A DNA stretch of 54,377 nucleotides from an uncultured Methanosarcinales archaeon. GTDB lineage: Archaea > Nanobdellota > Nanobdellia > Woesearchaeales > UBA10216. A program made the translations under genes and the position numbers. The stretch covers positions 1-54,377 of the forward strand of contig CAZDCW010000005.1 in assembly GCA_964504135.1 (NCBI GenBank). The letters are read 5' to 3'. The notes under the pieces were generated by a model. That model searched no databases. It worked only from the letters and a program-made list of their open reading frames with translations, and was not told where the DNA came from. Below, piece by piece: positions 8,766 to 33,032 of the stretch (its first letter is position 1; every line of letters begins with the position of its first letter).

Positions 8766-8854
8766 TATAATAGCGAACATTAATTCTTAATAGAAATTTT
8801 CGCTATTATATTCCAGAAAACCTAACAAATAGTATTAAAAATTTAGGTTTTCTG
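8766..8854. repeat. Two consecutive perfect 12-bp inverted repeats
   Basis: TATAATAGCGAA (8766-8777) / TTCGCTATTATA (8799-8810) and CAGAAAACCTAA (8814-8825) / TTAGGTTTTCTG (8843-8854). Confidence 0.85.
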
Positions 8855-8857
8855 TTA

Positions 8858-9025
8858 TAGCAGCCTGTGGCTCCCTGATTCAGCCACCCCTGCGGGATTA
8901 TGTAACGTGTACTGATTGGCATCGTTCACGGTTTGCAATGTCCACTTGCCTTGTCAATACGTATAGCCCTTGTACAGTTAACCGCCATATACGAAGAGGA
9001 CAGTACACGAAGAGTCAGCCTGCTA
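8858..9025 (+). ncRNA. Putative structured ncRNA or MITE-like element, copy A
   Basis: Homologous to 26519-26691(-) and 32866-32950. The ends pair (TAGCAGCCTG/CAGCCTGCTA), there are several internal stems, and a TATA-like TATTAAAA lies at 8833. Confidence 0.6.
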
Positions 9026-9084
9026 TTAGTCATTATAATCAAAATTCAGCACAATTTAAAAAGCAGCGGCTTTTCCCTCAGGAG

Positions 9085-9495
9085 ATGTTGGACTATAAGC
9101 AGCTTTTGGAGCGTGGAAGGGAGAAATTGCCTGAGAAGGTTTTGGAGACTTCCAGGTTTGAGGTTCCGAAGGTTCGGGGCCACATCCAGGGTAACCGCAC
9201 AATCATAAGCAACTTCCCCCAGATTGCTGACCTTCTGCATAGGCCGCCGGCGCACCTTCTCAAGTATATCCTGAAGGAGCTCGCAACCCCTGGTGAGGTG
9301 AGCAAGGGCCTTTTTATCATCGGGACCAAGATTTCTGCTTCAAGGATTAATGAGAAGATTGAGCAGTACGTTAAGGAGTTTGTTCTCTGCCCTGAGTGCA
9401 GGAAGCCTGACACAAAGCTGGTGAGGGATGACAAGTTCCTCTTCATCAAGTGCTCTGCCTGCGGCGCAAGGCAGCCGGTTAAGGTTAGGGTGTAA
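9085..9495 (+). CDS. eif2b: Translation initiation factor aIF-2 beta
   Basis: RFEVP..GNRTIISNF, LKELATPG and C-terminal CPECRKPDT..CSACGA. SD GGAG precedes ATG 9085. Confidence 0.95.
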   Translation: MLDYKQLLERGREKLPEKVLETSRFEVPKVRGHIQGNRTIISNFPQIADLLHRPPAHLLKYILKELATPGEVSKGLFIIGTKISASRINEKIEQYVKEFVLCPECRKPDTKLVRDDKFLFIKCSACGARQPVKVRV

Positions 9496-9528
9496 AAGTT
9501 TAAATACTGTTTTTGCGGTTTTCAGCCT

Positions 9529-10236
9529 GTGAAAAAGGGCCAGGTTACGGTTTTTTTGATAGCTGCTGTGATAATCCTCCTTATAGGAGTCGCCTTTCTG
9601 CTTTATCTCAACAAGCCTTTCAGGTTTGCTGGGTCCGCCAGCGCCCAGGATGCGATTAACCGGTTTGTGTTGCAGTGCATTGAGAATACGGCGGCCAAGG
9701 GTGTTAGGGAGCTTGGCCTTCAGGGCGGCTATTATAGGCTTCCATCAGGGCATTTTGAAAAAGGCGATTATGGCATTCCGTACTATTTTGACAGGGGCGC
9801 TGATTTTTCCCCTTCAATAGGCACTTTGGAAAGCGAATTTTCAGACTATATGGACGACAGGCTGCCTGGCTGCGCTGATTTCAGCGAATTCGGGAAGCAG
9901 GGCGTTCTTGTTTCAGCCGGAAACCCCTCAACGTCAACAGGCATTCAGGCGAACAGGATTGTATTGAGCATCGCCTACCCTTTAACCGCGAGGGTGGGTG
10001 ACGAAACCGTTTCCTTGGAAAGCTTCAGCTATGAGCTTGACTCCAACTATGGCTTAAGTCATCAGGTCAGCAAAAAGCTTGCGGAAAAGCTGGTTAATGA
10101 CCCTGAGTACAGGGACTATACCTTCATCAACAGCCAGCCTCAGATTGTAAGCATCCTGCCGCAGCAGTCTTACACAGACATCTACATTGTTGTGGACAGG
10201 CAGTACAATTTCCTTTTCGCAGCGAGGTTCAGATGA
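9529..10236 (+). CDS. Membrane-anchored protein with class III (pilin-like) signal peptide
   Basis: MKKGQ followed by a hydrophobic stretch. Its extracellular module resembles the N-termini of the 28860 and 33033 proteins. ATGA-coupled to the giant ORF. Confidence 0.8.
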   Translation: MKKGQVTVFLIAAVIILLIGVAFLLYLNKPFRFAGSASAQDAINRFVLQCIENTAAKGVRELGLQGGYYRLPSGHFEKGDYGIPYYFDRGADFSPSIGTLESEFSDYMDDRLPGCADFSEFGKQGVLVSAGNPSTSTGIQANRIVLSIAYPLTARVGDETVSLESFSYELDSNYGLSHQVSKKLAEKLVNDPEYRDYTFINSQPQIVSILPQQSYTDIYIVVDRQYNFLFAARFR

Positions 10237-13200
10237 GACAGTTAGTGTGGCTGTTGTTTGTTCTTCTGCTTTCAGGCTTTGCCTCCGGAGCCGCCACTGT
10301 AATTCTGCCTCCTTCTGGCCCTGACGCTCCTGACGTGAAGCCGCCAGGTGGCTGCTCAGACTGCGTTGCAGGGACAATCTGTACGTCAGCCGGGCCTCCG
10401 GCCTCATGTCAGGCTGCTGAAACTGCTGACCTTGCCACAGTCCCTCCTGCCTTAATCAATTCCCAGATTTCTGCAATTCCTCCAAAGAAGCTTGAGGACA
10501 GCCTTGGGGACATTCAGGACCTTTCGCAGCTTAGCTCCCCTGAGGCGCAGGAGGCTTTGCGTCAGGCATTCCAAAAAAGGTATGGCATTCCTGTAACCAT
10601 TGACGCTTCAGCAGGCAGGGTTAGGGTTGTGAATGACCGGCTTTTCCGGCAGGGTTCTAGCATTGACTTGCCTTCGCTGAAGGATAACAGGGAAATCCGG
10701 AGTTTGGAGCTTACAACCGTCCAGGATGGCGCAGGCAGCCAGCTGGTCGCAAGGTACAGCTTGAAAACAGGCTATTATTTTGACGTTGTAGGCCAATTTA
10801 ATCTGGTTGCGGCAGATAATTATGGCCTGGTAATTGATGGCATTAATGCAAGATTCGCTGCAGCGAACGGTTACTACGGAGTTATTGATAATTACGTGAC
10901 CTCCAGAAACGTTCTCCTTAGTTTGGCTGGCAGTGAGGAAATCAGCGGCGACGCAAATTTCTTCAGGAATCCTGACAGCTCTCTTGACAGGTCAAGGCCT
11001 GTTAAGCTCTCAGGAACAAACAGCTGGGTGTGCGTTGATGACAAGGCCAAGTGCATGAGGAATCATCCGCTTAACGACTGGACATCCACTGAATCAGGGC
11101 CAGGCTCTGCTGACTGGATGGTGACTGAGGCCTGCTTCCGCTGCTCTGAGGACGAGGTATCCGGGCTTTCTGAGAGGCTGCTGGAAGGCCTGATTTATGG
11201 TTATACGTCCTGGACAAGGCAGCCGAATGCCCAGGGCATAGTGTCAGACTCATTGAACATGAGGGGATATGGAATATCGAAGTTCGGCGACGCGATTATC
11301 GAGGGCTCACATCTCAATGTTGATTTCACCGTTAATGATGACTCCGATACCAGTGGCGTGATGTTCAGGTTCCTTGATTCTAAGCTTGGGAGGGATGATA
11401 AGGCTGTGGGAAGGGTGGTCTCCTATGGAAGGAGCCTTGACCTGCAGTTTGAGTCTGACGGCAATGTTCATGCAAAGGAGAGGAACTTCCAGACCGAAAC
11501 AGCAGTTCCGCTGACCTCGCAGGGGTTCGTTAATAGCCTGCTGTTCGGTTCAGGGGATATTCTGCCTGCTGCTGTCACGCATTTCGGGGATTCTTCTGCC
11601 ATAAAAAAACTTGAGGCTGAAATAAGGACAACTCCCTTGGAGGCCCGTTCTGCTGACGTTAAGGCATACATCAGCCAGTCAAGGCCTGACCTGTTAGGCC
11701 AGCCTTTGACTGCAGCGCAGTCTGCCGAGCTTGACAGGGAGTTTCTGAAGGCTTACCTGGGCTACGAGTATGCGGCAGATTTTCTCAAAAGGCAGCCTAC
11801 GCTTGAGGAGGCATACCATTATGGCGAGTCAGTTCTCTCAGGGCTTTCCGGCAGCCAGAAAGCTGATGATTCCAAAAAACCGGTTGTCTTCAACCACCAG
11901 ACCTCAAAAGTCCTGCCGTCAGGAACAATGGTAAAGTTTGAGAACTTTTATTTCATGACTCCTGATTCTGTGGTGACAGGCCAGGGTGACATTGATTTTA
12001 ACTCGGCCCTCAGGCAGAAGTATGAGCGGGAAGTTATGCAAAGGGCGCTTAAGGATTCCTCTTTCCTTGCCTTGGCTCCTGAGGAGAGGGATTCCTACAT
12101 TCAGTCCGCTGTATCGCAGTATGAGCCCCTCATTTCCTTGGCGTCAAGGATGAATGAGCAGAGGCTTGTTGTGGAATACGTGGAAAACTCAGGAAACGTG
12201 GTGGGCGTTCAGGAGCTGAAGACTTCTGTTAAGGATGTTGGTGATAAGAGGCAGCTTGCCTACGCCCAGCTTGAGCATCTCCAGACAGTGCAGGAGGGTA
12301 TGGAGGAGGTGCTGCTGCAGTTGCAGCAGGGGAAGTCGCTGGTGGATATCCGGGAGAAGGCATCTGGAAAGGTTGAAGCGGCTTTCGGCGACCCTGCTTT
12401 GAATTATCAGTACAACCAGGAGCTTGCATCCAGGATAATTTCTGCAGGCAGGAGCTCAATTGAGTTGAACGGCCATACTTTCGACATCACCACTAAGGAG
12501 GGTCTTGCATCTTTCCTTGTTTACAACAATCTGGATGCAGCGAGGCTTTTTTATGGAAGGGGCAACTTTGAGGACGCTAGTTCGCACTCGCTGAATGCCC
12601 TGCAGTTCAGCATGAGCCCTGAGGACTTTGCAGAGTTCCTGAAAGTCCTTAGGCAAAACCCTGGAGTTTTCGGAAAGGTGGCCTCCTCCCCCGACGGCCA
12701 GTCAGGGTTCACCGCGTTCAGCAGGGACGGCTACGACTACCTTGTCCCTGACCGAATCAGGCTTATGGTCCAGCAGGGAAGGCTGAACCAGGACATTTTG
12801 AAGCAGTACATGGACAACAAGGCGGCGGTTGAAAGCAAGAACCTTCTGGTAAGCAATCCTGAAAAGGCCCTTGACTTCATACTGCCAAACGAATATTGGG
12901 AGGTAGCTGCAAATCTTGCCTTTGCCTCAAAGCCCACTGCTGTCGTTGTGTCTGCAGGAGGCAAGGTCATGCTGAGGAAGACTGTGCTTAAGCTCTCTGA
13001 GGAGGTGGGGAGGCTTGGCTTCAGCGGAGTGATTGGGTTTGACCTGCCGAGGGGCGCGCTTTCCGGAAATGCGTTGAGGGCTGCGGTTAAAGCATCTGAT
13101 GAGGATGCCCCCAGGCTTTCAAGAGGTTCATTTCCAGTACTTGACCCTGCTGCCGCTACAGGCTGTATTACATGCCGCCCCGACCAGGTGCTTGACTCTT

Positions 13201-16200
13201 CAAATCCTGCATTTGCCTTGCAGACAGAGCCGCGTGATAAGGGCCTTTTTGAAAGGCTGCTTGACCTTGTAAGGGGAAGGAAAAGCCCTGTTGCACCACC
13301 AGAGGCCCCTGGCGCTCCTGATGATTTGACCCTTTTCAAATTTTTGGATGAAGAACAGGTTGTTCCTCATCCAATTGACCCTCCTGCAAGGCCTGGCTCT
13401 ATTGATGAAGTTGTGCAAGCCTCCCAGAGGCGTGTGCCAGAAGCTCAGGATCCTGCTTACGTCGCTTCAGTAAGGTCAATGTTGGGCAGGAGTGAGGAAG
13501 ACATTTCCTTCATGCTGGATAAGTATATAGGCACTAACATAAAGCCACAGGTTGCTGCTGTAGTTAGGGACGAGCGCATGTGGCAGCAGGTGCTTGAACA
13601 CCTGAAGATACCCCCTACAGATGTTCAGAAGGTTGGGTTTGAGGAGCTGAATCCAGGCACATTCTCGCGGCCAATAAAGGTGACGGTTTCCGGGCAGGGT
13701 TTTTCTAAGGATTTTGTATTCAAGCTTCCTAGAGACAGTTATGTAGATCCTGAAGTCACTGAAAGGCAATTCAGGTATATGGCTGGAATGGCCAGGGCAA
13801 CGGATGAAAGGGGAGAACGGGCCGTAATGCAGCGAGTCTTGGCAGATCCTTTGTATTATGATTTGGGGTATCGTGGGCCTTCGGCGATTGTACCTGAGGA
13901 GTTCGTCCCGGGAAAGTTGGCTGGTTGGGCTGAAAGATATTATGAGCCTGCTGCCCTTGTGCACTCGCTGGGCAGCTTGGACGGCAGGCTGTGGGCTGCT
14001 TCCAGGCAGCTTGAGAATGGCGTGGAGACTGGCTTTGTTACCGTTGACAATTCTGCGGCTAACATAATTGTGGCTGAGTCTGAAAACGGCGAGGTTGTTG
14101 CGAAATACATTGACTCGGACATCAACCGCAACCACGTCATAATGGGCAATCTGGAGGACCTTGTGATTTACTCCATTCACACTAAATCCCAGAGGAATTG
14201 GCAGCGAAGGATCCAGCCTGATGATTTGGACGATTTTCTCTCAGGGATGCTGGAGCACCTTGGTGATAGGGATTCTGCCTTGCGGTCTTTTGCAAAGGCT
14301 GCTGACACTCTTGAGCAGGAAGCGCTGAAGGTTGAAAGCGAGCAGTGGCGCAGTGAAATGAGGGAGGCTGCAGGGAGGATAAGGGCTTTTGTAAAGAGGG
14401 AAGCTGCATCTGTCCGAGGCGTTTCCGGCCTTGGAGGTGGTGCGCCTGCCAAAGCGGGAAGGCCATTAACCAACAGGGAAGTGGCTGACATTGTTAAATT
14501 AGAAATACCGCAGGCCGCAGAACATCCGCATCTGGTACGCCTTGTCGCCAATGCGCAGACTGAAATAGACGCTTTTTACCAAGAACTGGCCGCGAAAATG
14601 GGCGGCGAATATTTCCCTGCAGAATCCTCTGATATCAGGCAACAGATTTTGGAGGTCAAGCCTCAGTTTGAATTTGCTTTCAGGGCTGGAACACCTGACA
14701 AAATGTCTGCGACAGTAACTTATGTTAATGCCGAATTACCTGGAATGTTAGTGGTAGGAACTAGCTCAGGAAGATCCTCTGGTAGAATTTTAGGAGAGAA
14801 TCAAGGATTTATTGTTAAGGGGCCAAACGGTAAATCGGAGGATACTGTTAGGCTTTACAGGGGGGTCATTGAATATGCTGCAGAACAACAATTACCCGTA
14901 ATAATTAGGAAACGGTATGCGACTGCTGAGGATATTGAAGGGTTTGTTAGGGGCTGGATTGACATCGGGACACTCTTAAGAAACCATCCCGACCGGGTTA
15001 GCCTTGTTTCAAAATATGAAAAAATAGCCCGGGAAAATCCTGAATGGTCCAAATTGGAAGTTGCCTTCAAAGCATTTCATTCATATTGCAGGGAGAATTT
15101 CGTGGGGTCGCTTGATTGCTCCGGGTCAATATTTGTTTCGGGTTCTGAGAAGAGTTCTGTAGCTGAAATGTATTCGTTATCTTCCCGAACTGGAATTATT
15201 TATGGAACTGAAGGAAGCAGAGGTATTAGGGGTGTGCTTATTCTTGATGTTCCCAAATCAAGGACGTTTGAACCATCAAGTGCTATTGTTAATTATAACA
15301 GTGATACTCGTAGTGAAACAGCCATAATCGGGGCTGTTGATCATGCATGGGTGCGAGGATTTGTGCCTAGCGAAGGGTTGGAGAGTAATGCTGCTGGTTT
15401 TCAACAGCGAATCACCATTGCAGAAAAGATTATCGATGAATTGGACTCCGCCAGCGACCCTCTGGGTGCCGCTATATCGGTTATGCTGGCAAACAGCGGC
15501 CTTTCAAGAGCGCTGGAGAGGAATATCGGGACAAACATCAGGTCTCAGGTGGAGTCTGTGCTGTCTGACAGCGGCGCCTGGAGTCAGGTGCTGTGGCATC
15601 TCGCCGTTGAGCCTGGTGATGTGGCGAGGATTGACGTTCAGGAGCTAACGTCTGGCTTTTACAAGAATCCCTTTAAGGTGGAACTGTTCCTTCGCAACGG
15701 GGAGAGCAGGAGTTTTGTCTTCAAGCTTCCAAGAGACAGTTATGTAGATCCTGAACTCACTGAGAGGCAATTCAGGCATATGAAGGATTTGGATGGCTCT
15801 GGAGTTATGCAGAAAGTCATCGGCGGCCAGCCGGTGTATGTAGATCTTGGCGGTGATTTGGGAAGGCGGCCCATTATTTTTGAGGAGTATGTTCCGGGGT
15901 ACACGGCAGAGAAGGCATTGACTGTTTATGGCAAACGGCCTGTTATGGTGTCATTGGGCGACCTTGATGGAAGGTTCTGGGCTGCTTCCAGAAGCGTTGA
16001 GGATGGCATGGTAACAGGCCTTGTCAACAAGAACAATGGATTAGATGATATCATTGCAGAAGAAAAGTCTGGCGCTTTGGTTTCAAGGTATGTTGACTCA
16101 GACGTTGATTTCGTTTCACAGGGCGGGATAGATGAATTGGTGATTAAAGGCTTATTTCACAAGAATTTCGAGTGGCCAAGGATAATGCCTGATTACATCG

Positions 16201-19200
16201 ATGCCTATCTTTCCGCAATGCTCCCACACCTTGGCAACCGGGAATCTGCCCTTCGCGCATTCATATCCACTGCTGACAGGATTGATTCAGAGGCGTTGAG
16301 GCCTGTTAACAAGGATTGGAAGGCTGGCATGCAGGATGCCGCGGGCAGGATTAGGAAGTTTGCCACTGACAGGCTGGAAATTAAGGAATTCGTGGCTGCG
16401 GAAAGAAGGGCCGCAAAAGTTGTATTGTTGCCTGGCACGCCAGTGAACTTGCCAGCCAAACCTGCAGAGGTCAGGGATGATGCCTACGCGCTGCTCGGCC
16501 ACCTTTCAAGAGACTCGGATGCGTGGAAGCCAGTCCTTGCAAAGCTCGGTGTTAAGCCTGAAGATGTTTTGAAAGTGGATGTAAGAACTATGGCTGAGGG
16601 TGGAACAAAAATAGCCTACATCGTTAGTCTTGATTTGAAGTCGGGTGAAAGGAAAAGCTTCGTGTTCAAGACTTCTAATGGAAAAAATAGGATTCTGGAA
16701 GGTGAATACTCTGCCTTGAAAAAGGCTGAAGGGTTCAATGTCGGCCCAAGACAGCTTACAGATTCCCCCATCGTGGCTGAAATAGCAGGGGGTAAGTCGG
16801 TTCTGCTGCTTGAGGAACTCGTAACTGGCTACTCGCTTGATGAGGCAAAGCTGACTGTCCCGCCTGATGAATTATATCGGGCAATGGGCGAGCTTGATGC
16901 CCGCCTGTTTGAGGCCGGAAAGACGTCAGAGTACGGAAGAATCAGGGGCTTCACCTATAATGACTACAGGTCGGCCAATGTCCGGTTTTATGATGATGCT
17001 GGAGAGGGGCTTGTTGGAAAATTTGTTGAGTTGGATGTAAGCACATCATCGATTGATGATTTTTTTGGCGCAAATTACTTGTTTAGTGTACCTCCTGAAA
17101 ATTTGAACGCATACCTGAAAGGCTCATTTTCTGTTCTGAAGGATAAGCGCAAAGCCCTATCCAGCCTGGCTGGCCTGGCCGACTATTTTAGCTGGAAATC
17201 ATCTTATATGGCCGAAAACGTTGCGCAAATAAAAAAATTCGTTTCAGAGTATGCTGCCTCAGAGGGGATAACATTGCCTCCAAGAAGGCAATCCATCCCT
17301 TCAAAAGCTGAGCTTCGGGAAGCTGTTATGGGCAACACTGCAGACCCGTTGGCGGCAGACATTGTGGCCCGGGCCTACACTGACATGTACTCTGCTCGCG
17401 TGAAATTGGCCAGCAGTTTTAATGGACGCTACGTTCTTCTTGACGGAAACATCATTGTTGACGATGCAGTCGAAACCGGTGGCAGGCTGTCTGATGCCCT
17501 GAAAAGGGCGGATGTCAAGGCAAAGGAATATGCTGAAACGGATAAGGATGCTGTTGTTAAGGTGGTTCCCAGTGTATCCTATGGCGAGCAAAATAGTCCG
17601 GAAAAGATAACCGTCCTTTTGACTTTTGCTGAAAAGGCCACTGGTAAAAGATACGATGATGCCTTTTTCGGGGAGGTTGTCCTTAACAATATGGCTGGTT
17701 ATGGGGCTGTGGAATCAGCCGGTGCAAAAAGGGGGGAAGTCAGGCTGTTTATGGGAATAGGCGGCGATCCATCTCAGGTGCAGAAAGCCGGAATCGTGGC
17801 CGCGGGTTATGCGACGACAGATGACATCCGCAGGTTTATGGATGGGAAAGCAGGCATAGAAGAACTGCTGGGGAAGCATCCTGAAAAGGAAAGCTTGGTG
17901 AAACGGTTTCACAAGGTTAAGGAAGAGAACCCCGGCTTATCTGACAGCGAAGCCGCTTACATGGCATTTACAAGGAATTGTGCTTGGGCGGGGGGTTGCC
18001 ATGCGAGCATTTTTGCATCTGCTTCCTCTGACCCACAAATGAGTGCTTTTTATGAACAGTTTGGAGGGCAAAAGGCCAGTTGGATTTTGGTCATGGACAT
18101 ACCTAAAAGAGAGGTTCTTAATGCAAAAGAAATAGGGAATTTTGGAGAATCAGAAATGGCTGTTGCTGGCGAGATTTCTCCTCAGTGGATCAAGGGATTC
18201 GTGCCCCGTAATGTAAGGTACGCTGATATGGATACAATGCTTCACGCCTTCGATGCGCAGGTCACGTCAGGGACGACTGTGGTTGTGGCTTCAGAAGGCG
18301 TGGTAAGGGAAGTCCCCTTTGACGCAGAGAAGCTGACTTCCAAAGCCCAGTTTATGGTTTACGGCGAAAATCACAAGGCGAATATAGTTGGCCCGCCTGG
18401 GACTGTTTACGACATTGGCGACGGAGTTTTGTTAAGGCCGGGCGAAGTGTTTGAGCTTTCCGAGGAACAATATGCATCCCTCAGGAAGGCCGCTCCTTAT
18501 GACCTTGAGGTTAGGGGGTTTGGTGTGAGTATGCCCATCACTGAGGCAGAGTATCGGGCCATTATCGCTTCTGGAAAGTTTGAGACTTTAGTTGACAGTG
18601 GCGATTATGTGGTATATGTAACTGAGGGGTTGGAGCTTCCTGGGGGCAGAAGGCTGTCGGCTGGGTCTGGTGACAGGATTTGGGTGGGTTTGGGCGAATA
18701 CATCTCTGTGATGACCAAGGGGATTCGGCCAAATCTCGAATCTGTGTCGAATGGAGTGACCATGGCCCTGAACAGCCATGAATACGCTTTGTTAAAGGTT
18801 CGCAATTACTTCCATGAGGGGGCGTGGATTAACAGCCCGAAATTCAGCGATTATAAGGAGGGCTGGAAGATTCATGTAACCGCTGCTCAGGATGATATCG
18901 CCATGCTTGAGGATGCCCTTCTTCCATACCTGAGGCAGAAAAGGATTACGCATAAGGTCATGATAGCTTCCCAGGTTCCGAAATACAGGGGGACGACTCA
19001 GGAGGGAAAGGTTGTCGCAGTGTTTCTTGGAAGCGGGCCTGATGCTGAAAGGATAGTCGAGGAGATGGATTCCCTTATTGCTGCAGAGCTGAAGAATTCC
19101 GGTAAGCTTGCTAGGGAGGAGCTCCCGTATGGCGGAAAGTCAGGAATGATTTCGTACAGGTATGCGAATCATAAAGGCTATTCAATTGTTAACCCTGATA

Positions 19201-19313
19201 ACCCTGATGAGAAGGTGTTTGATGATGTTATCAGGGAGACCGGCTGCATTCCGCCTTGGATTAAGTTTGACCTCAAGGGAAAGGCCAATACAAATCCCTG
19301 TCCGGTGGCTTAA
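10233..19313 (+). CDS. Giant secreted multidomain protein (3 kinase-like, 2 ADP-ribosyltransferase-like and 1 phospho-Ser/Thr lyase-like domains); candidate toxin/effector
   Basis: Uninterrupted 3026-aa ORF with an N-terminal signal peptide (MRQLVWLLFVLLLSGFASGA); domain motifs are detailed in the findings. The CDS is solid, the function is inferred. Confidence 0.8.
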   Translation: MRQLVWLLFVLLLSGFASGAATVILPPSGPDAPDVKPPGGCSDCVAGTICTSAGPPASCQAAETADLATVPPALINSQISAIPPKKLEDSLGDIQDLSQLSSPEAQEALRQAFQKRYGIPVTIDASAGRVRVVNDRLFRQGSSIDLPSLKDNREIRSLELTTVQDGAGSQLVARYSLKTGYYFDVVGQFNLVAADNYGLVIDGINARFAAANGYYGVIDNYVTSRNVLLSLAGSEEISGDANFFRNPDSSLDRSRPVKLSGTNSWVCVDDKAKCMRNHPLNDWTSTESGPGSADWMVTEACFRCSEDEVSGLSERLLEGLIYGYTSWTRQPNAQGIVSDSLNMRGYGISKFGDAIIEGSHLNVDFTVNDDSDTSGVMFRFLDSKLGRDDKAVGRVVSYGRSLDLQFESDGNVHAKERNFQTETAVPLTSQGFVNSLLFGSGDILPAAVTHFGDSSAIKKLEAEIRTTPLEARSADVKAYISQSRPDLLGQPLTAAQSAELDREFLKAYLGYEYAADFLKRQPTLEEAYHYGESVLSGLSGSQKADDSKKPVVFNHQTSKVLPSGTMVKFENFYFMTPDSVVTGQGDIDFNSALRQKYEREVMQRALKDSSFLALAPEERDSYIQSAVSQYEPLISLASRMNEQRLVVEYVENSGNVVGVQELKTSVKDVGDKRQLAYAQLEHLQTVQEGMEEVLLQLQQGKSLVDIREKASGKVEAAFGDPALNYQYNQELASRIISAGRSSIELNGHTFDITTKEGLASFLVYNNLDAARLFYGRGNFEDASSHSLNALQFSMSPEDFAEFLKVLRQNPGVFGKVASSPDGQSGFTAFSRDGYDYLVPDRIRLMVQQGRLNQDILKQYMDNKAAVESKNLLVSNPEKALDFILPNEYWEVAANLAFASKPTAVVVSAGGKVMLRKTVLKLSEEVGRLGFSGVIGFDLPRGALSGNALRAAVKASDEDAPRLSRGSFPVLDPAAATGCITCRPDQVLDSSNPAFALQTEPRDKGLFERLLDLVRGRKSPVAPPEAPGAPDDLTLFKFLDEEQVVPHPIDPPARPGSIDEVVQASQRRVPEAQDPAYVASVRSMLGRSEEDISFMLDKYIGTNIKPQVAAVVRDERMWQQVLEHLKIPPTDVQKVGFEELNPGTFSRPIKVTVSGQGFSKDFVFKLPRDSYVDPEVTERQFRYMAGMARATDERGERAVMQRVLADPLYYDLGYRGPSAIVPEEFVPGKLAGWAERYYEPAALVHSLGSLDGRLWAASRQLENGVETGFVTVDNSAANIIVAESENGEVVAKYIDSDINRNHVIMGNLEDLVIYSIHTKSQRNWQRRIQPDDLDDFLSGMLEHLGDRDSALRSFAKAADTLEQEALKVESEQWRSEMREAAGRIRAFVKREAASVRGVSGLGGGAPAKAGRPLTNREVADIVKLEIPQAAEHPHLVRLVANAQTEIDAFYQELAAKMGGEYFPAESSDIRQQILEVKPQFEFAFRAGTPDKMSATVTYVNAELPGMLVVGTSSGRSSGRILGENQGFIVKGPNGKSEDTVRLYRGVIEYAAEQQLPVIIRKRYATAEDIEGFVRGWIDIGTLLRNHPDRVSLVSKYEKIARENPEWSKLEVAFKAFHSYCRENFVGSLDCSGSIFVSGSEKSSVAEMYSLSSRTGIIYGTEGSRGIRGVLILDVPKSRTFEPSSAIVNYNSDTRSETAIIGAVDHAWVRGFVPSEGLESNAAGFQQRITIAEKIIDELDSASDPLGAAISVMLANSGLSRALERNIGTNIRSQVESVLSDSGAWSQVLWHLAVEPGDVARIDVQELTSGFYKNPFKVELFLRNGESRSFVFKLPRDSYVDPELTERQFRHMKDLDGSGVMQKVIGGQPVYVDLGGDLGRRPIIFEEYVPGYTAEKALTVYGKRPVMVSLGDLDGRFWAASRSVEDGMVTGLVNKNNGLDDIIAEEKSGALVSRYVDSDVDFVSQGGIDELVIKGLFHKNFEWPRIMPDYIDAYLSAMLPHLGNRESALRAFISTADRIDSEALRPVNKDWKAGMQDAAGRIRKFATDRLEIKEFVAAERRAAKVVLLPGTPVNLPAKPAEVRDDAYALLGHLSRDSDAWKPVLAKLGVKPEDVLKVDVRTMAEGGTKIAYIVSLDLKSGERKSFVFKTSNGKNRILEGEYSALKKAEGFNVGPRQLTDSPIVAEIAGGKSVLLLEELVTGYSLDEAKLTVPPDELYRAMGELDARLFEAGKTSEYGRIRGFTYNDYRSANVRFYDDAGEGLVGKFVELDVSTSSIDDFFGANYLFSVPPENLNAYLKGSFSVLKDKRKALSSLAGLADYFSWKSSYMAENVAQIKKFVSEYAASEGITLPPRRQSIPSKAELREAVMGNTADPLAADIVARAYTDMYSARVKLASSFNGRYVLLDGNIIVDDAVETGGRLSDALKRADVKAKEYAETDKDAVVKVVPSVSYGEQNSPEKITVLLTFAEKATGKRYDDAFFGEVVLNNMAGYGAVESAGAKRGEVRLFMGIGGDPSQVQKAGIVAAGYATTDDIRRFMDGKAGIEELLGKHPEKESLVKRFHKVKEENPGLSDSEAAYMAFTRNCAWAGGCHASIFASASSDPQMSAFYEQFGGQKASWILVMDIPKREVLNAKEIGNFGESEMAVAGEISPQWIKGFVPRNVRYADMDTMLHAFDAQVTSGTTVVVASEGVVREVPFDAEKLTSKAQFMVYGENHKANIVGPPGTVYDIGDGVLLRPGEVFELSEEQYASLRKAAPYDLEVRGFGVSMPITEAEYRAIIASGKFETLVDSGDYVVYVTEGLELPGGRRLSAGSGDRIWVGLGEYISVMTKGIRPNLESVSNGVTMALNSHEYALLKVRNYFHEGAWINSPKFSDYKEGWKIHVTAAQDDIAMLEDALLPYLRQKRITHKVMIASQVPKYRGTTQEGKVVAVFLGSGPDAERIVEEMDSLIAAELKNSGKLAREELPYGGKSGMISYRYANHKGYSIVNPDNPDEKVFDDVIRETGCIPPWIKFDLKGKANTNPCPVA

Positions 19314-24138: not shown

Positions 24139-24139
24139 T

Positions 24140-25348: not shown

Positions 25349-25394
25349 GCACCCTCACCCGCACCATCTTTAAAAGTCTTAATTCCCTTCTAAA

Positions 25395-25591
25395 CCCCCA
25401 CACCCCGGTTTCCTGTGGAAGTGTTTATTGTTATGTTATAAAAAATTATTCAATATTATTTACAATATGGAAAAGAACTGTTGGTTGAAAACAGAGAAGT
25501 GTTTCCTATAGACTTTCTATCAATTGAACACATAAACACAAGATTAAACACATAAACAAGGCCCTCCATGAGAAGCCAAGGGGTCAGAGGG
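25395..25591. promoter_or_regulatory. oriC-like region upstream of cdc6: inverted ORBs flanking an AT-rich stretch
   Basis: Minus-strand TTCCACAGGAAACCGGGGTGTGGGG at 25395-25420, AT-rich 25424-25475, and a degenerate plus-strand CTCCATGAGAAGCCAAGGGG at 25564-25583. Confidence 0.7.
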
Positions 25592-25683
25592 CTGTTTGGC
25601 GGTACACAGTCAACTATCTATATACTATCGTTGAGTGGTAAAATAAGCAAAACCTTTTTATAATGCCCTTTTATCCCACATCC

Positions 25684-26481: not shown

Positions 26482-26518
26482 ATTAGTCTTTTTCTTTAAC
26501 TATTCCTTTAATTATAAG

Positions 26519-26691
26519 TAGCGGGCTGACTCTTCGTGTACGGTACAAGGTGACCTGCACAATGGAAACCGAAGCAGGGACAATGAACATTGCAAACCAG
26601 TGAACGCCAAGGAGTACACGAAGCCAGACTGTACACGTCTCGAGTTCCCTGAAAGGGGCTGCTGAATCTGCGGTAGCGACAGCCAGTCATA
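26519..26691 (-). ncRNA. Putative structured ncRNA or MITE-like element, copy B
   Basis: Reverse complement aligns end to end with copy A (GATTCAGC, ACGTGTAC, CGTTCAC(T)GGTTTGCAATGT, CCTTGTAC; terminal 23-mer 22/23 identical). A TTTTTATAG box lies upstream. Confidence 0.6.
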
Positions 26692-26742
26692 TAACTTTAA
26701 TTTAAACAAACCTATAAAAACAATTCTTGACACCCATATGCG

Positions 26743-27633
26743 ATGCAGTGCAGGAGGTGCAGCAGAAAAGCAGCGGTGGAGACAGAGAATCCTTCTTGCA
26801 TGAGCCATTTTCTTGAGTTGTTTGAAGGTAAAGTCGCCAAGGCAATAAGGCAGTTCCAGCTTCTTGGCCGAAAAGACAGGATAGCTGTGGCTGCAAGCGG
26901 TGGCAAGGACAGCACATCGCTTCTTTACATCCTTCAAAAGCTGGGCTATGATGTGGAGGCCCTAGCCATAGATGAGGGAATCCACGGCTATAGGGAAGGA
27001 ACGCTGGCAGGCCTCAGGGAATTCTGCACGAGCCACGGCATAAAGCTTAAGATTACCTCTTACCAGGAACAGTTTGGATTCACCCTGGACGAGCTGATGA
27101 GCAGAAGCAGCTATAGGAGTCCTTGCATGCCATGCGGCATATTAAGAAGGTACCTTCTCAACAAGGCAGCCAGGGGCTATGATAAGCTGGCCACAGGCCA
27201 TAATCTGGATGATGAGGCCCAGTCTGTAATGATGAATATGATGAAGAGCAACATTCACCTTATGGCGAGGCTGGGCCCGAAAACAGGGGTTATTGCAGAC
27301 AGCAAACTCACTCAGAGGGTAAAGCCCCTGTATTTCTGCACTGAAAAGGAAGTCGCTACATATTCTTTCCTGCAGGGCTTTAGCATTAAGTATTCAGAGT
27401 GCCCGAACGCCCCCAAGTCGTTCAGGGCGATGGTCAGGGACTTCCTGAATGATGCCGAGTCAAAGTCGCCGGGCACCAAGGCTTCAATAGTCCACTCTTT
27501 CCTCAAGCTTTCGCCTCTTCTCAAGCAGATGCCTGTGGAAAGCCCGCTTCTCTACTGCGCTGAGTGCGGCGAGCCAAGCAGCAGGGAAACGTGTAATGCG
27601 TGTAATATTGCAAGAATAGTAATATTTAAATAG
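26743..27633 (+). CDS. tRNA 2-thiolation protein (TtuA/NcsA/Ctu1 family)
   Basis: PP-loop SGGKDS, CMPCGILRR, ATGHNLDDEAQ and terminal Zn fingers. Confidence 0.93.
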   Translation: MQCRRCSRKAAVETENPSCMSHFLELFEGKVAKAIRQFQLLGRKDRIAVAASGGKDSTSLLYILQKLGYDVEALAIDEGIHGYREGTLAGLREFCTSHGIKLKITSYQEQFGFTLDELMSRSSYRSPCMPCGILRRYLLNKAARGYDKLATGHNLDDEAQSVMMNMMKSNIHLMARLGPKTGVIADSKLTQRVKPLYFCTEKEVATYSFLQGFSIKYSECPNAPKSFRAMVRDFLNDAESKSPGTKASIVHSFLKLSPLLKQMPVESPLLYCAECGEPSSRETCNACNIARIVIFK

Positions 27634-27655
27634 TAATACGTAATACTTGTATAGT

Positions 27656-27859
27656 ATGACTAGCTTGACGAGCAAAGGCCAGGTTACAATTCCGAAGCGC
27701 ATTAGGGGCGTACTCGGATTAAGGGCTGGGGACGAAATTGACTTTGAAATAGGGGATGGAAATGCGGTTATCCGGAAAAAACCCAGGCTGGAGATTGAAA
27801 AATGGGCGGGCTACCTTGGCAAACACAGGACAGAGGCTATGATGAAGGAGCTTAGATGA
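27656..27859 (+). CDS. AbrB/MazE-type antitoxin (VapB)
   Basis: LTSKGQVTIPKRIR..LGLRAGD; ATGA-coupled to a PIN gene. Tandem GTAATA(C) boxes at 27619-27646 are a likely operator. Confidence 0.9.
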   Translation: MTSLTSKGQVTIPKRIRGVLGLRAGDEIDFEIGDGNAVIRKKPRLEIEKWAGYLGKHRTEAMMKELR

Positions 27860-28335
27860 TAACAGCGATTGATACAAACATACTCCTAGACATACTTTTT
27901 AGGGATGAGGAATTCTTTCAGAAAAGCAGCCAGCTGCTGGAGAGGCAAAGCGCCCTTGGCGCGCTTATAATTTCCCCATTGGTTTACACTGAGCTGTTGT
28001 CCGCCTTTTTCAGACTTAGCTCTAAAAAACCCGCAGAAGACCTTGATGCGTTTTTGGAAGGCATGGGCGTTCAGGTTTCAGACCTGGGAAAAAACGACCT
28101 GGTACTTTCAGCTGACAGGTGGAGCAGTTTCAGCACTCATAGGAAAATGGCTTGTCCAAAATGTGGGGCGGCAACCTTGTTAAAATGCGGTGCTTGCGGC
28201 CAGGAAATGCATTGGAGAAATCACATAATAACCGACTTTCTGATTGGTGCCCATGCACAAAACAATGCAAACGCTTTGATAACCAGGGACAGGGGGTATT
28301 ACCGCAGATATTTCAAAATTAAAATATTTTCATGA
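27856..28335 (+). CDS. PIN-domain toxin (VapC) with inserted Zn ribbon
   Basis: AIDTNILL, VYTEL, DFLIGAHA and LITRD, with a CPKC..CGAC insert. Confidence 0.9.
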   Translation: MITAIDTNILLDILFRDEEFFQKSSQLLERQSALGALIISPLVYTELLSAFFRLSSKKPAEDLDAFLEGMGVQVSDLGKNDLVLSADRWSSFSTHRKMACPKCGAATLLKCGACGQEMHWRNHIITDFLIGAHAQNNANALITRDRGYYRRYFKIKIFS

Positions 28336-28342
28336 GTTACAG

Positions 28343-28849
28343 ATGTTTATGGACATAGTCAGGCCAAATGGAAACGAGGCAGAGCTGATTAAAATGGCTG
28401 AAAGGCTCGGTATGAAGAGCCTCGCCCTGTATTACCCTGATAAGAAGGGCGCGGAACTCCAGGCAAGGATTTTCGAGCACCAGAAGGATACAGGCGTAAA
28501 GCTGATTAGTGCGGGCAGCAGGGATGGCCACAAGGTAATAAACGACTATAAGCGCAGGAACAAAAAGACGAATATCGTAATAGGCATCTCCCAGCCCCTC
28601 AAGCACGCTGAATACAAGGAGCTTGCAGCAGCTGGCGTAGCGGTATGCTTCCCCTTCTCAGAAATCCTGCAGTCAGGCGCAGGCAGGACAGCCCTGCTGG
28701 AAAGCATAATGCGCAGCATCAGGCTGTGCAGGAAGCACAAGGTTAAGGTTGCAATAGCAACTTTCGCTGAGGACCCTTACGAACTCAGGGATGAGAAGGA
28801 TTTGAGGGCGTTCTATAAGGGGCTGGGTATCGTGGAAAATAATCCCTAG
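28343..28849 (+). CDS. RNase P protein Rpp30-like
   Basis: LIKMAERLG and C-terminal IRLCRKHKV..ATFAEDPYELR pattern of archaeal Rpp30; shortened. Confidence 0.72.
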   Translation: MFMDIVRPNGNEAELIKMAERLGMKSLALYYPDKKGAELQARIFEHQKDTGVKLISAGSRDGHKVINDYKRRNKKTNIVIGISQPLKHAEYKELAAAGVAVCFPFSEILQSGAGRTALLESIMRSIRLCRKHKVKVAIATFAEDPYELRDEKDLRAFYKGLGIVENNP

Positions 28850-28859
28850 ATGAGTAATT

Positions 28860-31800
28860 TTACCGGGCAATACATTTTCCGTTAGCAACTCCCCCCCAGC
28901 CATCACATGCCAACCCATCAAGACATTTTGGCATATTAACCCCCAAGAAGAACTTGCATGGCTCATTGAGCCCTGGCCTTTTTTGGCAGGTTCCGTAGCG
29001 GCCTGCAATGGCATCTTGCACACATTCAAACAATTCAGGGTCTGAACAGTCTGGCAGGGTATATCCGCATTTCTTGCCTTCCCTGCTGCGCATCTTCTGC
29101 TTGTATTCTTCACCATCAGGAGCGCATGTGCCTGTGTTTGACCTGTCCAAGTCCACATGACAGGAAGTCCCGGGATTGTCAGGGTCTGCTGATAGACTGC
29201 AGCATCGTACGCCTTGTCCAAGAGTACATGGTTCGCCTATGAGGAAGCATTGGCGTACTGCATTGTTGGTGCATTCCTTGTTTGTGGCAGCCTTATCAGG
29301 GCATAAGCATTGCTGCACGCCTGCTTTTGTACTTACACAGGCATTTCCATATTGGTCGCAATATACTGAAGTTCCAGCTTCCCCTGCTGGCTCGCAGCTT
29401 ACATAACCCTTTATCCAGTTTCCTGTCACTGGGTCTTTTTTGCATAGGGAATCCTTTGCGGGATCTGGTTCATACATCACTTTAGGTGTCTGTGGGCATT
29501 TCGGCACAGGTTCTTCACAAACGCCAAATTTATTGCATAAGCCCAGCTTGCTGCAGTCCTTTTTATACCAGTTGTATCCCTTTTGGGTGGTTTTGCACAG
29601 GAGGGACATGCCTTGCAAATCGTTTCTCTTAACCATTGGAATATCTGTTGCAGGCGTATTTGTCCCTGGTATGTTATCTTTAGATCCGCCGCATACATAC
29701 AAAGTGCTTAGGGGGCAAGGTATTTTGGCGGCATCAGCGATTTCAACGTACCCGTAAGGGATTCCTGCTAATTTCGGCGGCTTTACAGGGTCAGCCTTGC
29801 ATTGTCCATTATCGCAGCCGTTCGGGCATGGAGAGGCGTCCCTCGTGCCAGCCGCTTGTCCGGTGCAGTGTATGACATACCCGTTATTATTTCCCTGGCC
29901 GCAGACCTTGTCGTTGGCAGACTTGCCGTTGCACTCTGTAAGGGCGGCAGGGGGCGGCACTGCTCCAGGCGGTTGCGTTCCCGGTGGGGCTGCTCCGGGT
30001 CCAGGGAGAGTGGGCTGGCTTGGCGATGCTGCGCATTGGGCATTCTCGGCGCCTTGGGTTGGTTTCACCATTACACATCCATGCTCGCAGGGCTTTTTCT
30101 GTCTTATACCCGGGTTTTGTAAGCAGGGGATTCTTTTGGGGTCTGAGCATGGAGGGCCGCATTCAATTATAAAGTCGTGGTTGCATCCTGAGCCGCAGTA
30201 GTTTTCAATAAGACCGCTGTTCCTGTAGTTGTCCTTGCATTCGTTAAAGTCTTTTTCTCCAGAGGGGGGCGATGGGCATACGGCAGAATCGCATTTTCCG
30301 TTGTTGCAGATGCTGTCAGGCGGGCATTTCTCTGCAACGCCCAAATCGCCTGCGCCAGAGCATGTGATTATGCTTTCAAAATTGCCGCTGCAAGCCTTGT
30401 CTGACTTCTTCTTATTGGAGCACTGCTTATCGTAGCCTATCAGCGGCCCGCTTGCCTTGCAGTCGTTCACCGGCTTTTCGCATCTTGCACCTTTTGCAAG
30501 GGCGTTGAAGAAGTGCCGCTTAATTATAGTATTTCCTGCGTTGTCTTTCTGTGTTGCGCAGCCTTTTGAGAAGGGGTCTGTTTCTTCGCTCCACTTTAAT
30601 TGGTCGGATTCGTATGTTCCTGTAAACTTCCAGCTAGAGGGGCATAATGCTTCGCATAGAGTGATTACTCCCTTATTGTCCGTTCTGGCAACGCAGGCTT
30701 CGTTTTCATTGCAGGCTCCCTTGGCGGTTTCCTTTGCTCCCTGGCAGCGATAATATGCCTGTGTTTGGCCTATACTGTCGCAGTACAATCCATCATTCTT
30801 CCCCTCGCACCTGTTTATGCATTTCCCGTCCTTGCAGCTTCCTGGGCAGTGCTCCGTAAAGTAGCCTTCATTTCCATCGCCCGTGCATTCAAACGTCCAT
30901 GTTTTTTTGTCTTGTTTAATTTCATCAACGCATACCATGAGTCCTGGCTCTGCTGAATTGCATTCATTGATGCCATGCACGTTACGACTTCCCGGCACAC
31001 CGATACACCTGCCAAGCAATTTGACGTTGACCAGTAAGTCATTCACGTCATCCTTGCATGCTACCGAGCATTTCCTCTGGGAAACCATGCCCTGCTTTCC
31101 ATTGCCCAGGCATCTTATTACGTATCCGGCATTCTGATTCTGGCCGCATATCTGCACAGTAGAAGTTGCTTTTTCATGAGGCGCGCATTCAGTTAGCTCT
31201 TCCGCAGCTTTATAGCCCTTTACAGTGCCTGGTGGAGCCGCAGGTGGCTGTGTTCCTGGTGGCGTTGGCTGGCCAGGCTGTGCTGGAGTGGCCGGTTCAA
31301 CACCGCAGCCTGCGAGCAGCGCTGCCTTTCCTTCAGGATTGACCGCCTTGCCTTGCAGGGCCTTGCATTTTGAGTCCGGGTTGTCGGCTGCTATGAAGTC
31401 ATTCCCCTTCTTCTCGCGGCCAGTGTACACGCCTATGTAGTTGTAGTTGTTGACGCAGCTTATTGTCTCGCAAAGCGCTCCATCCTGTTTTACAACATCA
31501 GGATAAACCCTTCTGGGCCATCTGTAATCCCTAATCTCGTAGCATTTATCAATTGGACAGCATGCAGCAACTTGCTGGTCATTGGACACGTCATTCCCGG
31601 CTGAGTCTTTAGTCTTCTCCTGGCCTGCATACGCCTTTCCGAAGGGGCCAATCAACCCTTTTCTCTCATGTGACTTTGCGCATTCCTCAGGCACAGGTTT
31701 TGCTTTGCATAATGGCTGGCCATTGATTTCCTCACATTCTCCTGAGCAGCTAAGAGCGGCTCCGTTTATGTCCTTGGAAAGGTCCTTCTGGCACATTATT

Positions 31801-32738
31801 ATCTGTGTCTTGTCGCTGCTGCACATAAGGTAAGCTGAATCCTGGTTCTTGGAGCATTCGGAGTATTTTCCAAGTTTGGCTTCCTTAGACATGGTGCTCA
31901 TCTCTGTAAGATGCCCAACCTCTGCAATTAGCATATGCCTTGCATCGTCGTAGCGTGTCTCCCACGCAACCCACGCTCCCAGCTTCTTGTCAAAGTACCC
32001 TATTTTGAAGTCCTTGGCCTGGTCTGGGGAGTATTGGCCAGGCACAGCTATTGACAGCAGGAGGGGCGGGTTGAAGTTGGTGCCGTCTGGCCCAAGGTCA
32101 TATACAGTGCTTGTCAGCAGTATGTAGTTCTCTACCTTTGCAAGGTCGGCGTCAATTATCTGAAGGGATAGTTGTGTTACAGGATTTCCATTTTGGTCAG
32201 TGGCCTTTGTGCTGTCCTGGACAGTTAGCTCTGCCTTGCCGTCGTTGAGTGAGTATGTGCCTGGATTTAGGTTTATTGCGTCTTTTCTCTTGATGTAGGA
32301 GTTGAAGGTGCTGAAGGATATCTCTGACAGCCCTGCGTGGATTGTCAGCGGGTAATTCACGTTGGCCGCGATTACATCAGGCGTTTCTGACAATTTTACA
32401 GTTGGCTTGCCCTTGTCTATGCTTATCCCCCTTGCCTGCTGTGATGAGAAGTCTGAGCAGCTTTCAAGCCCTTGGGCTATTGCCGCCTCCTGCGCAGCTA
32501 TGTCGCGAGGCTGCGTCCCGGCATCTTGAGCTTTCAGCAGGGACTCCTTGAGGCACGAGTCTAAATAGGCCTGCAGCGAAAGAGCCTCCTGCTCAAGCTG
32601 TATCTGGGGGGTTTGTATTTGCCCAGGCTGGCTTGGAATCTTTGATAGTTCTGTACGGCTGATTGAGAAGAGGCCGACTACCACAAGGATTAGTATTCCT
32701 GCTATTATGAAGGCCGATACCTGTCCTCTTTTAGGCAT
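28860..32738 (-). CDS. Large Cys-rich surface protein with class III signal peptide and ZU5-like domain
   Basis: MPKRGQ plus a hydrophobic helix, YDLGPDGTNFNPP..W..HLT, many Cys-rich modules and Pro-rich linkers. Confidence 0.85.
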   Translation of the reverse strand: MPKRGQVSAFIIAGILILVVVGLFSISRTELSKIPSQPGQIQTPQIQLEQEALSLQAYLDSCLKESLLKAQDAGTQPRDIAAQEAAIAQGLESCSDFSSQQARGISIDKGKPTVKLSETPDVIAANVNYPLTIHAGLSEISFSTFNSYIKRKDAINLNPGTYSLNDGKAELTVQDSTKATDQNGNPVTQLSLQIIDADLAKVENYILLTSTVYDLGPDGTNFNPPLLLSIAVPGQYSPDQAKDFKIGYFDKKLGAWVAWETRYDDARHMLIAEVGHLTEMSTMSKEAKLGKYSECSKNQDSAYLMCSSDKTQIIMCQKDLSKDINGAALSCSGECEEINGQPLCKAKPVPEECAKSHERKGLIGPFGKAYAGQEKTKDSAGNDVSNDQQVAACCPIDKCYEIRDYRWPRRVYPDVVKQDGALCETISCVNNYNYIGVYTGREKKGNDFIAADNPDSKCKALQGKAVNPEGKAALLAGCGVEPATPAQPGQPTPPGTQPPAAPPGTVKGYKAAEELTECAPHEKATSTVQICGQNQNAGYVIRCLGNGKQGMVSQRKCSVACKDDVNDLLVNVKLLGRCIGVPGSRNVHGINECNSAEPGLMVCVDEIKQDKKTWTFECTGDGNEGYFTEHCPGSCKDGKCINRCEGKNDGLYCDSIGQTQAYYRCQGAKETAKGACNENEACVARTDNKGVITLCEALCPSSWKFTGTYESDQLKWSEETDPFSKGCATQKDNAGNTIIKRHFFNALAKGARCEKPVNDCKASGPLIGYDKQCSNKKKSDKACSGNFESIITCSGAGDLGVAEKCPPDSICNNGKCDSAVCPSPPSGEKDFNECKDNYRNSGLIENYCGSGCNHDFIIECGPPCSDPKRIPCLQNPGIRQKKPCEHGCVMVKPTQGAENAQCAASPSQPTLPGPGAAPPGTQPPGAVPPPAALTECNGKSANDKVCGQGNNNGYVIHCTGQAAGTRDASPCPNGCDNGQCKADPVKPPKLAGIPYGYVEIADAAKIPCPLSTLYVCGGSKDNIPGTNTPATDIPMVKRNDLQGMSLLCKTTQKGYNWYKKDCSKLGLCNKFGVCEEPVPKCPQTPKVMYEPDPAKDSLCKKDPVTGNWIKGYVSCEPAGEAGTSVYCDQYGNACVSTKAGVQQCLCPDKAATNKECTNNAVRQCFLIGEPCTLGQGVRCCSLSADPDNPGTSCHVDLDRSNTGTCAPDGEEYKQKMRSREGKKCGYTLPDCSDPELFECVQDAIAGRYGTCQKRPGLNEPCKFFLGVNMPKCLDGLACDGWGGVANGKCIAR

Positions 32739-32865
32739 GTTCGCTCTTTTTTTGTGGGAAAGGGATATTTAAATGTTTACACAAAAAATTTGCCAATCAA
32801 CTTGACTTCAAAGGCATGGCGGTATTGAAAACCCTCCATCCATTGTTGAAGTTAAACTAATTCCT

Positions 32866-32950
32866 TGCAGGCTGACTCTGCGTTTTTCGTCCCCTTCGTT
32901 TGCCCTTGTTAACATGCCCTTGCGTTAGTACACGAAGAGTAAGCCCACTA
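32866..32950 (+). ncRNA. Short copy C of the dispersed structured element
   Basis: GGCTGACTCTGCGT...ACGAAGAGTAAGCC inverted repeat (12/14). The terminal 23-mer is 21/23 identical to copy B. Confidence 0.5.
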
Positions 32951-33032
32951 TTATTGATTTAAGGCAAAACGAGCTTTTCAATGAGGCCAAAGGCAGGTAA
33001 GTTTTAAATACCAAGCCAATTAAATGTTCAGG

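Follow-up and report, generated by a model that had tools for sequence, protein, structure and literature searches.

Two intergenic elements of a woesearchaeal contig, copies A and B, probably belong to an old, non-autonomous and genus-specific family of repeats that resembles transposable elements of the miniature inverted-repeat type (MITEs) and is now mostly decaying in intergenic DNA. The stretch analysed (the window) covers 54,377 nucleotides of contig CAZDCW010000005.1 (C5) from the genome of an uncultured archaeon (GCA_964504135.1, here G000; 1.37 Mb in 50 contigs, 92% complete), and it was compared with the sole congener genome (G001; 1.43 Mb in 6 contigs, 95% complete). A sequence-only reading of the window had described three dispersed structured elements (A, B and C) and had offered two explanations for them, a multi-copy structured non-coding RNA (ncRNA) family or an old MITE family. 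Our analysis favours the latter for A and B, while the former found no Rfam, fold, clear covariation or promoter signal. The preference follows from the high copy number, the inverted-repeat ends, the restriction to one genus, the lack of orientation bias, the truncation, nesting, inversion and loss of copies, and their fast divergence.

The three elements had been grouped by a common terminal 23-mer at three intergenic sites, and this observation was confirmed. Three matches were found in the window (9003-9025 on the plus strand, exact; 26519-26541 on the minus strand, one mismatch; 32928-32950 on the plus strand, three mismatches), compared with 0.00 expected from 100 shuffles, and each element lies between long open reading frames (ORFs). 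End-to-end alignment also showed that A and B are collinear and have in common the sequence blocks named for them. Copy A (8858-9025, plus strand) is a full-length member of 168 nt, which begins with TAGCAGCCTG, ends with GTACACGAAGAGTCAGCCTGCTA and has the ACGAAGAG block duplicated internally (nhmmer E = 2.8e-34; covariance model R1 E = 5.7e-27). Copy B (26519-26691, minus strand) is a full-length member of 173 nt whose 5' end is degenerate (TGACTGGCTG; nhmmer E = 1.1e-38), and ATTAAA is found on either side of it, beyond a 6-nt extension.

The family is far larger than the window suggests. In G000, the 3' 19-mer occurs 80 times with at most four mismatches, and a profile from a six-copy seed gave 79 nhmmer matches, 31 of which are near full length (115-206 nt). 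The profile built from these 31 copies matched 78 times in G000 (9,445 bp, 0.69% of the genome, 57 per Mb) and 71 times in G001, and covariance model R1 obtained 70 and 67 matches, respectively. The 31 near-full copies end in a 10-bp inverted repeat (TAGCAGGCTG...CAGCCTGCTA), and this terminal core is 92% paired over 22 copies. In full copies, a conserved 5' module of ~95 nt (GATTCAGCAGCCCCTTTCGGGA, ACGTGTACGG, TTCGTGCACTG, TTGCAATGTTCACTGCC), which contains three GTKYAC boxes as well as a small hairpin (CCCC...GGG), is followed by a middle part variable in both sequence and length, and then by the conserved 3' 23-mer with a fourth GTKYAC box. The build is modular: some variants carry a C/A-rich tract in place of the 3' half, others are without large internal parts, the 3' GAGTCAGCCTGCTA is repeated in some copies, and three copies contain a 48-nt insertion consisting of two perfect tetraloop hairpins. 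One copy is truncated (G000 C9:22786-22828), and another (G000 C2:44149-44405) is interrupted by a different repeat. Judged by their sequences, the copies are old, since their median pairwise identity is 0.66 and exceeds 0.9 in just 2 of 496 pairs.

Copies are mainly intergenic, with the midpoint falling within a crude ORF call for 9 of 58 in G000 and 5 of 53 in G001, and several of these ORFs are over-extended. No bias was found in their orientation relative to neighbouring genes, all four classes being filled (21/9/9/17 in G000 and 14/14/11/14 in G001). The conservation of the ends continues into the flanks. Among 48 full copies, positions -7, -5, -2 and -1 on one side and +1, +3, +5 and +7 on the other are conserved and mutually complementary, with the consensus T.AAYAAG to the left of TAGCAGG and CTWRTAA to the right of CCTGCTA, and the inverted-repeat core extends weakly both outward (TTAAYAAG, ~7 nt) and inward (CTTC/GAAG). 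Because the flanks are complementary, the inverted repeat is better described as ~17-18 bp long, and the coordinates first given for the elements clip it. The native 5' flank of A, at 8757-8765 on the plus strand (ATTAACAAG), fits this consensus and is parted from A by a later insertion; in the G001 ortholog, which has no insert, ATTAACAAG is joined directly to TAGCAGCC.

Comparison of the two genomes revealed frequent differences at orthologous sites. The window is syntenic with G001 (91-97% identity); copy A is kept at the orthologous site, with 166 of 168 positions identical, and copy B is missing, its flanks abutting one another. Copy B is also missing from contigs of runs X2 and X3, in which window positions 26492-26741 are replaced by 55 other letters. 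For the 77 family sites of G000, 38 are shared with G001, 25 are absent there, 14 have no ortholog and none is rearranged; for the 70 sites of G001, the corresponding numbers in G000 are 43, 14, 12 and 1. Orthologous flanks with no element in the other genome were therefore found for 25 of 63 G000 sites and 14 of 57 G001 sites. Identity reaches at least 95% at 13 of the 38 shared G000 sites, the element is inverted at four, and the rest have internal deletions or swapped modules. Identity at shared sites is 86% over aligned columns for the elements (73% counting gaps), 91% for other intergenic DNA (76%) and 94.5% for coding DNA (93%). By this measure of sequence divergence, there is no purifying selection on the copies overall, and they diverge faster than other intergenic DNA.

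The taxonomic distribution is narrow. The search of relatives' genomes with a covariance model, as proposed in the sequence-only reading, was positive for G000 and G001 and gave no match in 29 others (17 further genomes of the same family and 12 of the same order). Among the 26 genomes of the taxonomic family that were covered, from 12 genera, there are 2 carriers, both of 1 genus, and the 24 other genomes are without a match. When 185,579 species genomes were scanned for an exact pattern, 21 loci were obtained, 16 of which come from one record, Candidatus Woesearchaeota (the congener), the only public record with many matches. Four others are single matches in which the covariance model finds no full-length member, in keeping with the ~17 chance matches estimated by hand for that pattern. 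The last, locus L115, is a 3,850-bp contig filed under another bin and the sole true match beyond the congener's record. It matches G000 C36:11066-14258 and C3:81733-82405 at 99.3-99.9% identity and links the two through a family copy; on this sequence match it is probably mis-binned. By joining two G000 contig ends via a copy, it shows that repeats of the family break assemblies. Viral contigs contained no exact match, phage records gave none, and a metagenome scan with a degenerate end pattern yielded at least 117 single matches, with no true member found by the covariance model among the 80 loci listed. As far as the genome searches reach, the family is restricted to one archaeal genus from groundwater.

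In the competing explanation, each copy would be a structured ncRNA gene with its own promoter, a constant scaffold and variable arms serving as guides, decoys or antitoxins. We consider this very unlikely. The Rfam check proposed in the sequence-only reading was carried out, and no known family matched the elements, whether in the window with the gathering score as cut-off, in the surroundings of A with E <= 10 allowed, or in 20 copies with E <= 1 allowed. Neither A nor B was folded more stably than dinucleotide shuffles: z was -0.03 (A) and +0.71 (B) on the proposed strand, and -0.81 and -1.16 on the opposite strand; RNAalifold on 22 copies retained only the 8-pair terminal stem (-0.71 kcal/mol). 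Complementary segments do exist in the consensus, with 84.5-87.6% of cells paired in the proposed helices, but on the unfitted MAFFT alignment of 22 copies the paired fraction (87.6%) was equalled by 337 of 500 column shuffles. On no measure did that alignment surpass shuffles (295/500 in a second comparison), its covariation score was 0.095 versus 0.097 in shuffles, and a double change was seen in only 1 of 20 pairs. With 72 distinct copies fitted to the proposed structure, covariation rose to 0.122 against 0.109 in shuffles, a value reached by 5 of 500, and two of five measures were slightly raised (5-6 of 500). In the test's own trials, 5/500 or fewer occurs in 5-25% of unconstrained alignments, and the measures least inflated by relatedness were not raised (178/500 and 114/500). 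G-U pairs outnumber A-C pairs by 93 to 69 (p = 0.07, from non-independent copies), and the perfect tetraloop hairpins of the 48-nt insertion as well as the 13 of 38 orthologous copies with at least 95% identity would also fit an RNA. Key pairs, in turn, are frequently broken: T60-A166 of the CGTGTAC/GTACACG helix in 10 of 21 copies, and, within the 72-copy set, the junction pairs of the second helix in 29 of 70 and in 31 of 62. The multi-way junction said to be conserved is thus without support, the fold energies of A and B being equal to those of shuffles and covariation ranging from nil to equivocal. No AT-rich or TATA-like box was found at a fixed distance upstream of the 48 full copies, and the boxes cited for A and B belong elsewhere: that of A lies in the later insertion, and that of B, kept in G001 without B, stands ~25-30 nt before the start of a plus-strand gene at 26743. 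The occurrence of copies in either orientation to genes, their confinement to one genus and their faster divergence than other intergenic DNA also argue against RNA genes.

Another explanation accepts that the repeat spread as a mobile element and holds that it was then adopted by the host, in the manner of REP/BIME, BOX or Correia repeats, for protein binding at the GTKYAC boxes or for a hairpin effect on transcripts. It would account for the near-invariance of the four spaced boxes and the ends while the rest drifts, for the modular build (constant 5' module, variable middle or C/A-rich tract, repeated 3' GAGTCAGCCTGCTA), for the intergenic location and for the well-conserved third of orthologous copies (13/38). 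It is unlikely all the same, because the copies, taken whole, are conserved less well than the intergenic DNA around them, 25 of 63 G000 sites have orthologous flanks without the element in G001, single-strand folds are no more stable than chance, no protein partner was identified, and the Y1 (IS200/RAYT-type) genes are flanked by unrelated hairpins. A related version, which we regard as quite improbable, is that of a domesticated element whose four GTKYAC boxes and terminal stem are kept for host or symbiosis-related protein or RNA machinery, acting on DNA or on read-through transcripts. If true, the copies would be a genus-specific intergenic punctuation that marks transcript ends or stability or organises the nucleoid, with a middle part that is deliberately variable. 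The invariant boxes and ends, together with the lack of target duplication and of a partner, leave a small door open for such a host-adopted or RNA role. The last alternative, that copies encode small cysteine-rich peptides ending in ...YTKSQPA, is hardly credible and is refuted for the family as a whole. Copy B does contain a 60-codon ATG ORF spanning the whole element (26508-26690, minus strand), and many copies show S-Q-P-A in one frame at their conserved 3' end. Against this, no frame is open in more than 8 of the 31 full copies, a 1-nt indel within a conserved block separates A from B, indels among copies are of many lengths, and the ORF of B has no Pfam match. Several other candidates were rejected: a tRNA or tmRNA origin (none in the window according to ARAGORN), a remnant of a TnpB guide RNA (omega RNA; there is no tnpB in G000 by PF07282, and no ORF accompanies any copy), REPIN/RAYT (the Y1 genes are flanked by unrelated hairpins, not by the family repeat), an IS630 partner (its ends are unrelated) and, by reasoning, integron attC sites (copies are dispersed among housekeeping genes in both orientations, and their flanks are unlike the core-site consensus).

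The MITE reading has its own difficulties, several of which concern the enzyme. No long multi-copy repeats that could represent an autonomous element were found in G000 or G001; the 1.4-kb and 3.2-kb duplicates of G001 are ordinary gene pairs. By genome searches with Pfam families, the TnpB-type domain PF07282 is absent from G000, the only genome searched with this family, and DDE_Tnp_1 (PF01609), rve and IS1595 are absent from both genomes. One IS630-like (DDE_3) gene is present, in G001 only, and its inverted repeat TAGTAAGCGACAAAAG is unlike the family ends; three IS200-like Y1 genes are present in G000, with GC-rich hairpin ends of their own that are also unlike those of the family. Among 140 accessory ORFs of G001, no transposase family was detected (the ORFs that qualified, 200-800 aa long, numbered 166, and another 5 lay across locus borders; the set was cut first by its 16 shortest members and then by 10 others); two tyrosine recombinases and three LAGLIDADG endonucleases were found among them. 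Target duplication is not evident in the A/B type either: of 35 copies, 3 have a perfect 6-mer at symmetric offsets, where 1.1 would be expected and re-paired controls gave up to 4.0. Most presence/absence edges are ragged, with flanking DNA lost too, or show microhomology, so that the differences between the genomes look more like losses than new insertions, and no fresh A/B transposition was seen. In addition, the GTGTAC-type blocks and the 3' 14-mer are nearly invariant despite the low identity between copies, which calls for cis requirements in master copies or some selection in place. The slight covariation excess in the 72 fitted copies points in the same adverse direction.

With these points taken into account, we still favour the MITE-like reading. 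That the 23-mer might be the end of an autonomous insertion sequence (IS) had been raised in the sequence-only reading, and no such IS was found in either genome; for want of a partner IS, the MITE label draws on the anatomy and population behaviour of the copies. The partner may have been lost or may reside on an unsampled virus or plasmid, and given that G000 is 92% and G001 95% complete, it may simply be unassembled. How the copies moved we infer as follows. A DNA transposase acting in trans would recognise the ends and the repeated boxes and copy the element into AT-rich intergenic sites. Most of the spreading would predate the split of the two sequenced species, and since then the copies would mostly have eroded, through loss of internal stretches, inversion, the nesting of other small elements within them and complete deletion.

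Some of the genes discussed above have features worth recording. The IS630-like element (G001 C1:605561-606515; locus L249:1432-2386, minus strand) consists of two overlapping ORFs (143 and 185 aa) that look as though a frameshift joined them; its ends read TAGTAAGCGACA.../...TGTCGCTAACTA, and it is missing from G000. The Y1 genes of G000 lie at C16:3211-3561, C17:948-1262 and C4:16659-17012. Two of them are 83% identical at the DNA level, with AATTCC and CCGCCGGTCTCTGACCGGCGG-type hairpins at both ends, and in the C17 copy, which spans profile positions 4-107 of 121, the tyrosine region at the C terminus is missing.

Copy C differs from A and B. It had been described as an 85-nt member (32866-32950, plus strand) with the family-like ends TTGCAGGCTGACTCTGCG and CGAAGAGTAAGCCCACTA, and inverted matches were indeed found at 32865-32887 (minus strand) and 32928-32950 (plus strand). 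These 85 nt turned out to be the core of a 173-bp unit (32818-32989, plus strand) with its own outer inverted repeat (GGCGGTATTGAAAA.../...TTTTCAATGAGGCC) and AAGGCA on both sides. The unit is 96% identical to G000 C8:27907-28079, and further copies exist on contigs C41, C2, C17 and C50 of G000 and in G001. Direct repeats of 6-8 bp border five copies (AAGGCA, TTGTTT, GCATCAG, GCTTGCTT and AAAATGC). The repeated unit, its outer inverted repeat and the target duplications identify C as a family-like core inside a younger, bona fide MITE. Two copies of the unit (C41:7376-7665 and C2:35575-35827) hold a nested element of ~112 nt (AGCAAGGGACATTAATATTCG...), and the C2 copy has a run of N. The surrounding region, 30279-37735, is mostly without a counterpart of more than 300 bp in G001, where a C-type unit lies on the other side of a ~4.9-kb segment.

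The insertion beside A is 92 bp long (8766-8857, plus strand) and unrelated to the family. It forms two hairpins, with the stems AATAGCGAA/TTCGCTATT and AGAAAACCTAA/TTAGGTTTTCT, has TA at both junctions and occupies a TA at the very 5' edge of A. A had been thought to be flanked by TTA and to have its own TATA box, but the left TTA and the box both sit in this later insertion. The insertion is missing in G001 and polymorphic in run X1, where a minor contig passes over it, as do contigs of runs X2, X3 and X5 (joint 8765->8858, two shared letters). Its sole other copy, G000 C9:22698-22789, is 100% identical and adjoins a truncated family member.

Modular mosaic repeats are known from bacteria, namely BOX in pneumococcus, Correia/NEMIS in Neisseria and BIMEs in E. 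coli. They share with the family constant end modules, a variable middle, intergenic location, a long imperfect hairpin potential and frequent gain and loss between close relatives; the family described here, however, is archaeal and of unrelated sequence. REPs are palindromes of 20-40 nt that flank their RAYT gene. The REP/REPIN-RAYT system is similar in being a high-copy intergenic palindromic repeat without target duplication in a genome with Y1 transposase genes. It differs in that the unit here is 115-206 nt long and the three Y1 genes have their own GC-rich hairpins, like ordinary IS200 copies. MITEs of the IS630/Tc1-mariner type are resembled by the family ends, which read TA-GCAGGCTG...CAGCCTGC-TA, and by the IS630-like gene of G001, yet the inverted repeat of that gene differs and G000 has no DDE_3 gene; as 9 of the 31 near-full G000 copies end in G rather than A, a TA duplication is not shown. 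In a 2024 Nucleic Acids Research survey (PMC11602168), MITEs are defined as sequences of 50-800 bp without coding capacity and with terminal inverted repeats of at least 10 bp, prokaryotic MITEs are described as mostly taxon-specific, and DPANN genomes are the densest archaeal carriers. The family agrees with that account in its size, non-coding nature, inverted repeats, tens of mostly intergenic copies, genus specificity and DPANN host. It departs from the MITEs described there in that the A/B type has no detectable target-site duplication, no related autonomous IS found in either genome and a median pairwise identity of 0.66.

If this reading is right, a candidate new RNA class is explained instead as repeat DNA, and the profile lets annotators mask ~0.5-0.7% of these small groundwater archaeal genomes. 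The intergenic DNA of the genus is a patchwork to which at least four small families, mobile or repeat, contribute, and these turn over between species ~5% apart. This turnover offers strain markers, as well as a natural system for studying what mobilises MITEs in genomes with no matching transposase found among the families searched.

The genes around the three elements are of various kinds. Copy A lies between a gene for an OB-fold protein and that for aIF-2 beta (9085-9495, PF01873, E = 1.8e-35), copy B between genes for a TrmB-type regulator and a PP-loop ATPase, and copy C between two very large ORFs. Very large ORFs of the window are found at 2173-8127, 10233-19313, 28860-32738 and 33024-37721 (1984, 3026, 1292 and 1565 aa, respectively). 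The only Rfam match in the window is an archaeal signal recognition particle RNA (RF01857) at 54004-54273 on the minus strand, with 112.3 bits against a gathering score of 96.5. In G001, a two-gene cassette (206 and 229 aa) is duplicated at C1:303295-304576 and C2:158554-159832 with 82% identity, and one of its copies abuts a family fragment.

Other small repeats accompany the family. A short repeat holding ATTGGGCCCAAT and AATTGCATGCGAATTTTGCACTAATTACCGCAATTTA is nested in or beside family copies at G000 C2:44149-44405, C4:46274-46452, C1:~82900 and C13:~13550. Intergenic tracts that are C/A-rich and G-poor, made of CCAACCACTAAC-like units, occur for example at G000 C9:8036-8095 and C6:13888-13928 and at G001 C1:393034-393100, the last with a period of ~14; such tracts often stand between the 3' end of a copy and a second, solo GAGTCAGCCTGCTA. 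A loose composition filter detected 76 C/A-rich tracts in G000, many of them in ORFs and of other kinds, and 17 near a family match. Just downstream of several copies (G000 C6:~13950, C12:~15900, C1:~106690 and C7:~11990) there is a palindromic GGTG(A/T)CAAATG(T/C)CAC, followed by (T/C)AGCCTG.

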